In this document: piece by piece, positions 11,752 through 11,814 of the stretch
How positions within the stretch are numbered: the first letter of the stretch is position 1
Layout: each line of letters opens with the position of its first letter
The notes under the pieces: generated by a model
Told to the model about the DNA's origin: nothing
The model's input: only the letters and a program-made list of their open reading frames with translations
Databases searched by the model: none
Position numbers and translations under genes: made by a program
Virus record (IMG/VR): IMGVR_UViG_2579778952_000005
Span: 1-11,814 of that record
Length of the DNA stretch: 11,814 nucleotides
Reading direction: 5' to 3' (one strand)
Source: a virus
Lineage: Duplodnaviria; Heunggongvirae; Uroviricota; Caudoviricetes

Positions 11752-11814
11752 TTATCGCTTCAGCTGAAAGTGAGGTCCGTCTTTCAGCGTTTTCCAGTCC
11801 CCGCCCCATTCGAT
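11752..11814 (-). CDS. C-terminal 20 codons of a gene entering from beyond the window; possible M15-family peptidase-type endolysin
   Basis: Frame is open from the window edge to TAA at 11752-11754 and encodes IEWGGDWKTLKDGPHFQLKR. The WGGDW...DxPHF(Q/E)L pattern resembles the C-terminal zinc-ligand region of LAS/M15 peptidase endolysins. Its position next to cos fits a lysis cassette. Only 20 residues are visible. Confidence 0.4.
   Translation of the reverse strand: MEWGGDWKTLKDGPHFQLKR

Follow-up and report, generated by a model that had tools for sequence, protein, structure and literature searches.

The open reading frame cut at the end of a lambda-like prophage contig is most probably an M15-type endolysin gene of a phiP27-type lysis cassette

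In bacteriophage lambda, the late-operon slot after the holin gene and before the spanin-type genes and cos is occupied by R, whose product cleaves glycosidic bonds. The same slot in the lambda-like E. coli prophage DNA analysed here (a stretch of 11,814 nt, referred to as the window) holds an open reading frame of which the window shows the last 20 codons. What kind of endolysin do these 20 residues belong to, and is the gene cut in the bacterium or only in the sequence? The original prediction was an M15-type endopeptidase endolysin, with T5-type enzymes given as the example, instead of a lambda R-type transglycosylase. Our analyses indicate, with a probability of about 0.93, that these are the last residues of an intact single-domain zinc metallopeptidase of 125 aa (MEROPS M15C, LAS fold), and that this protein is the endolysin of a phiP27-type holin-holin-endolysin cassette residing in a defective lambda-like E. 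coli prophage.

When positions 11752-11814 were retranslated on the minus strand, the 20 residues IEWGGDWKTLKDGPHFQLKR were obtained exactly as stated before, followed directly by a TAA stop codon (11754..11752), and the frame stays open up to position 11814. The fragment alone matches the Pfam profile PF13539 (Peptidase_M15_4) with 29.6 bits (E 1.1e-6), the curated cut-off being 25 bits, and aligns with the last 17 positions of this profile. When all PDB sequences were searched with the 20-mer, the significant matches were M15C L-Ala-D-Glu peptidases only, with ChiX (E 2.3e-8, 16 of 18 residues identical), 23ri, 8q2g, Ply500 and LysB4 among the sequences matched. A score above the curated cut-off, together with significant PDB matches confined to M15C, rules out a chance resemblance. 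The conserved residues W112 (in GGDW) and D117 and H120 (in KDGPHF) fall within the fragment. D117-G-P-H120 aligns with D120/H123 of ChiX and D114/H117 of EndoRB49, and W112 corresponds to the strictly conserved active-site Trp (W114 in T5, W109 in RB49). Thus, the resemblance of the visible C-terminus to the zinc-ligand region of LAS/M15 peptidases, which had been noticed from the sequence alone, is borne out.

The rest of the protein was read from near-identical genomes. Over 11,448 nt, the window is matched with 99.97-100% identity by three complete genomes (E400634, E500002 and E600003) and by L010, a draft contig of 64 kb (1 mismatch over 11,441 nt in the same prophage lineage). In all four, the fragment continues upstream, contiguous with the window end, into a 378-nt ORF for a protein of 125 aa, named "M15 family metallopeptidase" in RefSeq (WP_096930193.1). 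Residues 1-105, including two of the three zinc ligands, are therefore known from these genomes rather than from the source assembly. In the source genome, too, the 5' part of the gene is likely to be intact, although its exact upstream sequence is not certain, as the L010 protein carries T104I, its only difference.

It had been proposed to compare the full ORF with Pfam, the absence of an M15 or VanY domain speaking against the prediction. An M15 domain is present: PF13539, which matches the fragment, also matches the 125-aa protein with 48.6 bits (E 1.2e-12). PHROG 465, "endolysin", matches it with E 1.3e-74, and the PDB search returned 23ri, ChiX (5opz) and 8q2g (E ~1e-43), T5 endolysin (2mxz; E 4e-23, residues 4-124), Ply500 (E 1.3e-7) and LysB4 (E 1.8e-5). 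Over about 120 residues, the protein is 59% identical to ChiX and 63% to 8q2g. These matches to solved L-Ala-D-Glu endopeptidases substantiate the assignment to an M15-type endopeptidase endolysin, while no specific NCBIfam model matches the endolysin or the holins. Lambda R gave no BLASTP alignment with the 125-aa protein even at E<=100, so an R-type lytic transglycosylase can be rejected and the statement that the C-terminus is unlike that of lambda R holds for the whole protein. At E<=10, its Pfam matches were PF13539, DUF5715 and Peptidase_M15_3 only, with no lysozyme or transglycosylase family.

The gene is carried by 324 of 5,426 complete E. coli genomes; among the matches listed, every carrier has it annotated as an intact M15 family metallopeptidase. 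Relatives are encoded in 1,346 records of the phage collection, the nearest being L30 of phiP27. Comparison with four diverged relatives (90-98% amino acid identity) gave dN/dS values of 0.05-0.11, with every catalytic residue retained; the protein is under purifying selection.

L30 (NP_543082.1) of phiP27, an Stx2e-converting myovirus, is also 125 aa long, identical to the window protein at 120 of 125 positions (96%) and annotated as endolysin; PMC10487532 already aligns it with other M15_C sequences. The phiP27 gene is preceded by the same two holin genes (L28 and L29) and followed by the same lipoprotein gene and by L33, of which the window encodes a homologue. The upstream neighbours belong to the Pfam families Phage_holin_8 (130 aa, E 3e-23) and Phage_holin_3_7 (91 aa, E 1e-21), and both lie immediately 5' of the M15 gene in loci L001, L010 and L020, in phiP27 and in the porcine strain ETEC1717. 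In the window, small membrane protein and lipoprotein ORFs, a cos-like site and Nu1 lie downstream of the endolysin, so the holins, the endolysin and what follows reproduce the surroundings of lambda R, and the gene stands where a canonical endolysin gene does, in a late-operon lysis cassette beside holin genes. Its product would cleave a peptide bond, in contrast to lambda R.

By a simple hydropathy test, the 125-aa protein appears to have no signal sequence, membrane segment or SAR segment (maximum KD(19) 0.94). As it has no hydrophobic segment, it should need the holins to reach the wall. For ChiX/ChiW, holin dependence has been established genetically (PMC5778951), and by analogy the same dependence may be expected of the window endolysin. 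Directly downstream of the stop codon is a GC-rich hairpin that looks like an intrinsic terminator, and it might function as such: its RNA fold has -24.1 kcal/mol (z = -5.7 versus shuffles), and it was also found by a terminator-like scan.

To map its relationship to phage genomes, the window was aligned by local blastn with the complete genomes of phiP27 and lambda (Table 1).

Table 1. Features of the window and their positions (nt; position 1 is the first letter of the window)
Feature	Position	Strand	Basis or remark
Endolysin C-terminal fragment, last 20 codons (residues 106-125)	11755-11814	minus	translation IEWGGDWKTLKDGPHFQLKR
phiP27 match, 93% nt	11758-11814		blastn
Putative intrinsic terminator, GC-rich hairpin CCCCGG...CCGGGG, then T-run	11705-11751	minus	directly 3' of endolysin stop
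37-aa ORF, C-terminal hydrophobic segment (MKGIEMETPASLDLTRAAAFAIRLVAVAVLIWAVRWW)	11506-11619	minus	WP_001297666.1 in L001
phiP27 match, 97% nt	10861-11492		blastn
51-aa lipoprotein, lipobox LVGC, 30-aa mature part	11322-11477	minus	PHROG 7528, E 1.5e-35
122-aa hypothetical protein, phiP27 L33 homologue	10754-11122	minus	blastn vs phiP27; PHROG 1935
Lambda-like cos site, 12-nt position GGGCGGAAGGCG (lambda: GGGCGGCGACCT)	10346-10357	minus	alignment to lambda end junction
Lambda 13-1269 (cos, nu1, 5' part of A), 86% nt	9091-10345		blastn
Nu1, PF07471, E 3e-90	9624-10169		Pfam
gpA'-'gpZ fusion ORF, 349 aa	8600-9649	minus	junction ~9091-9092
Lambda 8063-9438 ('Z, U, V'), 99% nt	7717-9092		blastn
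V-L deletion junction, lambda 9438->13499	~7717-7721	minus (ORFs)	ORFs 7673-8230 and 7093-7533
Lambda 13499-18437 ('L, K, I, J), 95% nt	2783-7721		blastn
Lambda stf, 80% nt	1995-2278		blastn
phiP27 tail-fibre gene L54, ~90% nt	916-1465 and 544-614		blastn
Partial IS1, InsA ORF 43-318 (PF03811 + PF12759)	1-366	minus (InsA)	Pfam

The lysis cassette had been suspected to be mosaic relative to lambda-like structural genes. The map agrees: the lysis genes are of phiP27 type, while cos/nu1/A', 'Z-U-V' and 'L-K-I-J are 86-99% identical to lambda at the nucleotide level, and Pfam confirmed the lambda-type proteins Nu1, gpA ATPase, Z, U, V, L, K, I and J. The 122-aa L33 homologue marks the end of the phiP27-type block, and the cosB-side (Nu1-side) flank of the cos site is conserved. 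In phiP27, the cassette lies after stx2e and before HNH, P27-type terminase and contractile-tail genes, whereas in the window it is followed by a cos site and Nu1 of lambda type and by siphovirus tail genes. As phiP27, with its sheath and baseplate genes, is a myovirus, the lysis module has been joined to a wholly different virion module. Lambdoid prophages are known mosaics, and such mosaicism is expected. The tail-fibre stretch resembling L54, beyond the lambda-type tail module as seen from the lysis genes, is a second patch of phiP27 type.

The prophage, inserted between potC and potB, is defective, having lost the head genes and the tape-measure gene. In one deletion, equivalent to lambda 1269->8063, all head genes were lost and the N-terminal ATPase part of the terminase protein gpA (up to codon ~190) was joined in frame with the C-terminal part of the tail protein gpZ; exactly this fusion protein is found on 21 contigs, including metagenome assemblies. 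A second deletion removed G, T, the tape-measure gene H and M between the genes for the tail-tube protein V and the minor tail protein L, and because these four genes are missing, the prophage cannot build tails. The window copy of the endolysin may thus never act in a productive phage cycle.

Does the gene stop at the window end because it decays along with the prophage? The fusion protein led us to the source of the sequence: the window is the entire draft contig JMGQ01000081.1 (GCA_000687125.1), 100% identical over 11,814 nt in reverse complement. Both contig ends lie in repeats, IS1 on one side and a duplicated lysis module on the other. The latter is a block of ~2.6 kb (L001 17923-20564), of which the complete genome E400634 has two copies with 98.8% identity; over L001 19686-20200, the stretch that spans the contig end, their identity is 100%. 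Repeats of such identity are the usual cause of breaks in short-read assemblies. The endolysin gene is cut by this assembly break and not by biology: the window is a complete draft contig with its end inside a repeat, which leaves just 20 residues visible. At the opposite end, the window departs from otherwise identical complete genomes at IS1, which interrupts the tail-fibre region. This is why no full-length match to the window was found among the 5,426 complete E. coli genomes and the best matches cover 97% of it.

A truncated or inactivated remnant, with only the 3' end of the gene kept in the source genome, would be in line with the two large deletions described above (lambda 1269->8063 and 9438->13499), with the IS1 in the tail-fibre region and with the position of the upstream part outside the window. 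However, the window end is a contig end and no biological boundary, all sibling genomes with both deletions keep the intact 125-aa ORF, and the break falls in sequence that is 100% identical between two prophages. We consider a remnant very improbable. The apparent truncation is an assembly artefact, and what lies behind it is the duplication of the lysis module between two co-resident prophages.

An intact cassette in a prophage that can make neither heads nor full tails might also have been domesticated, like Serratia ChiW/ChiX, for non-lytic or sacrificial release of host proteins instead of phage release. ChiX, a chromosomal, domesticated enzyme 59% identical to the window protein, which is itself encoded in a prophage late operon, is required for chitinase secretion (PMC5778951), and a holin homologous to the 130-aa one affects Stx2e release in porcine STEC (PMC12571312). 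Nevertheless, the deleted architecture is narrow, being confined to 3 of 5,426 complete genomes plus 21 contigs. Moreover, the identical cassette is found in a second prophage of E400634 (L020, NZ_CM128600.1 2400363-2418877), which is phiP27-like, with a P27-family terminase, an HK97-type head and a tail sheath, and apparently complete. Both prophages encode the same two holins, M15 enzyme, 37-aa protein and lipoprotein (same WP accessions), which points to recent exchange between co-resident prophages and argues against long-term domestication in the defective element. Recency or gene conversion, and not long-term selection in a defective element, explains the intactness of the cassette, and the purifying selection seen across the family is equally expected of a phage endolysin. 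There is hence very little reason to favor domestication over a phage endolysin.

The small genes that follow the endolysin raise a separate question, which concerns the neighbors in the cassette and not the endolysin itself. The sequence between the endolysin and lipoprotein genes (~265 nt) is unrelated in the window and in phiP27, with a 37-aa ORF in the former versus a 64-aa ORF in the latter. The 37-aa ORF belongs to PHROG 4493 (function unknown; E 1.8e-16), has a maximum KD(19) of 2.05 and precedes a canonical Rz/Rz1 pair in another cassette variant. The lipoprotein region is 97% identical (nt) to phiP27 20691-21321, and a comparison of the phiP27 frames identified the 51-aa lipoprotein as homologous to the phiP27 ORF that has been listed as an o-spanin. 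According to Kongari et al., this o-spanin has 51 aa with a 30-aa periplasmic part, and with its 64-aa i-spanin it forms the shortest spanin pair of their survey, with 62 periplasmic residues in total (PMC6139136). ORF L32 of the phiP27 RefSeq record is annotated in another frame than the conserved lipoprotein.

Pfam and NCBIfam searches gave no match for the 37-aa ORF, the 51-aa lipoprotein or the L33 homologue. The window cassette has no recognizable inner-membrane spanin, the 64-aa ORF of phiP27 being absent from it, and other variants of the holin-holin-M15 module carry a canonical Rz/Rz1 pair after the M15 gene. It is conceivable, though unlikely, that the 37-aa protein and the lipoprotein act with the M15 enzyme as an unusually small or mechanistically different device for outer-membrane disruption, or that the cassette lyses cells without a spanin.

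Regarding the bond that the endolysin cuts, R44, H65, D72, W112, D117 and H120 of the 125-aa protein align with defined residues of ChiX and EndoRB49. The key residues of ChiX are R47, H68, D75, D120 and H123; its zinc ligands are seen in the crystal, and its D120A variant is inactive (PMC5778951). Those of EndoRB49 are H62, D69, W109, D114 and H117 (PMC10487532). The H-x6-D motif, with H65 and D72 in SRHLTGDAVD, lies outside the window and is found in L001, L010, phiP27 and four other variants; judging from the near-identical genomes, both residues are likely to be present in the source genome. With 59-63% identity over 95% of its length to the solved 5opz and 8q2g, the protein can safely be expected to adopt the LAS fold. 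Zn-dependent cleavage of the L-Ala-D-Glu bond has been established experimentally for ChiX (PMC5778951) and for EndoT5 and EndoRB49 (PMC10487532), and transfer from relatives that are 59-63% identical suggests the same specificity for the 125-aa protein. Although the PF13539 description line reads "D-alanyl-D-alanine carboxypeptidase" and the LAS fold is common to enzymes of different bond specificities, a VanY-like D-Ala-D-Ala carboxypeptidase is most improbable, as the closest characterized proteins, up to 63% identical, are all L-Ala-D-Glu peptidases (ChiX and the depositor-named 8q2g, 2mxz and 2vo9) and Pfam gave no match to PF02557 (VanY) or PF01427 (VanX).

Within the L-Ala-D-Glu peptidases, the naming of a T5-type enzyme needs to be qualified. 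Serratia marcescens ChiX (5OPZ/5OQ1), 59% identical over 120 residues and at 16 of the C-terminal 18, has the same zinc ligands and catalytic Asp, is likewise without a signal peptide, and is paired with a holin-like partner; its L-Ala-D-Glu endopeptidase activity is experimental. The short single-domain phage endopeptidases 8Q2G and 23RI, 63% identical to the window protein, are, judged from their numbering only, presumably of the RB49/RB43 type; they come from virulent phages, whereas the window protein comes from a temperate lambdoid/phiP27 module. EndoRB49 itself, which is without Ca2+ regulation (PMC10487532), differs from the window protein by an offset of exactly 3 in residue numbering and has the same Trp-to-Asp spacing.

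This spacing is 5 residues in the 125-aa protein (W112-D117). EndoT5 (2MXZ) shares the family, the fold and the H-x6-D motif, but its spacing is 16, that is 11 more, and the extra residues (with W114, D130 and H133 as the landmarks) form a mobile Ca2+-binding regulatory loop (PMC10487532). The longer loop also explains why T5 endolysin was not retrieved from all PDB sequences by the 20-mer alone. As its spacing is that of EndoRB49, the window endolysin is of the short-loop ChiX/EndoRB49 type and, by analogy, probably Ca2+-independent. The T5 example thus stands for the family and the fold; as the closest subtype it is partly rejected, since the short W-to-D spacing fits ChiX/EndoRB49, the closest characterized relatives, and the 20-mer alone misses T5.

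Taken together, lysis by this M15C endolysin might proceed as follows: the enzyme, having no signal or SAR sequence, would build up in the cytoplasm; the Phage_holin_8 and Phage_holin_3_7 products would permeabilize the inner membrane late in induction; and the endolysin would then get to the murein and cut the L-Ala-D-Glu bond of the stem peptide, with Zn2+ presumably bound by H65, D72 and H120, D117 as the likely general base, and W112 shaping the active site.

The feature is ordinary and already known: the endolysin, its family and this type of mosaic prophage have all been described before, and M15C L-Ala-D-Glu endopeptidases are well established as endolysins. RefSeq already contains the protein, the phiP27 homologue has carried an endolysin annotation for a long time, and the finding leaves phage biology unchanged.

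It does bear on toxin release in porcine STEC. In a 2025 study (PMC12571312), a 130-aa holin gene downstream of stx2e was deleted in two STEC strains from pigs, 4056 and 1717; on the basis of PGAP names, that study states that there is no endolysin gene downstream of stx2e, and it proposes holin-mediated secretion of the toxin. In RefSeq, strain ETEC1717 (pig, Belgium; L023, NZ_CP122876.1 2894428-2901141) shows the order stx2eA, stx2eB, holin, holin and an intact 125-aa "M15 family metallopeptidase", which is identical to the window endolysin at 117 of 125 positions with all catalytic residues kept. The KanR_FW homology arm and the Holin_FW primer of PMC12571312 map exactly to this locus, and from name, origin and primer matches we infer that ETEC1717 is strain 1717 of that study. 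The genes stxB2e, both holins and M15 are contiguous in 23 complete genomes, and two other porcine ETEC copies of the M15 cassette are not linked to stx2e. Behind the RefSeq name "M15 family metallopeptidase" there is thus an endolysin adjacent to stx2e in porcine STEC, and with an intact M15 homologue after both holins in ETEC1717, ordinary holin-endolysin lysis is a candidate alternative to holin-mediated secretion of Stx2e.
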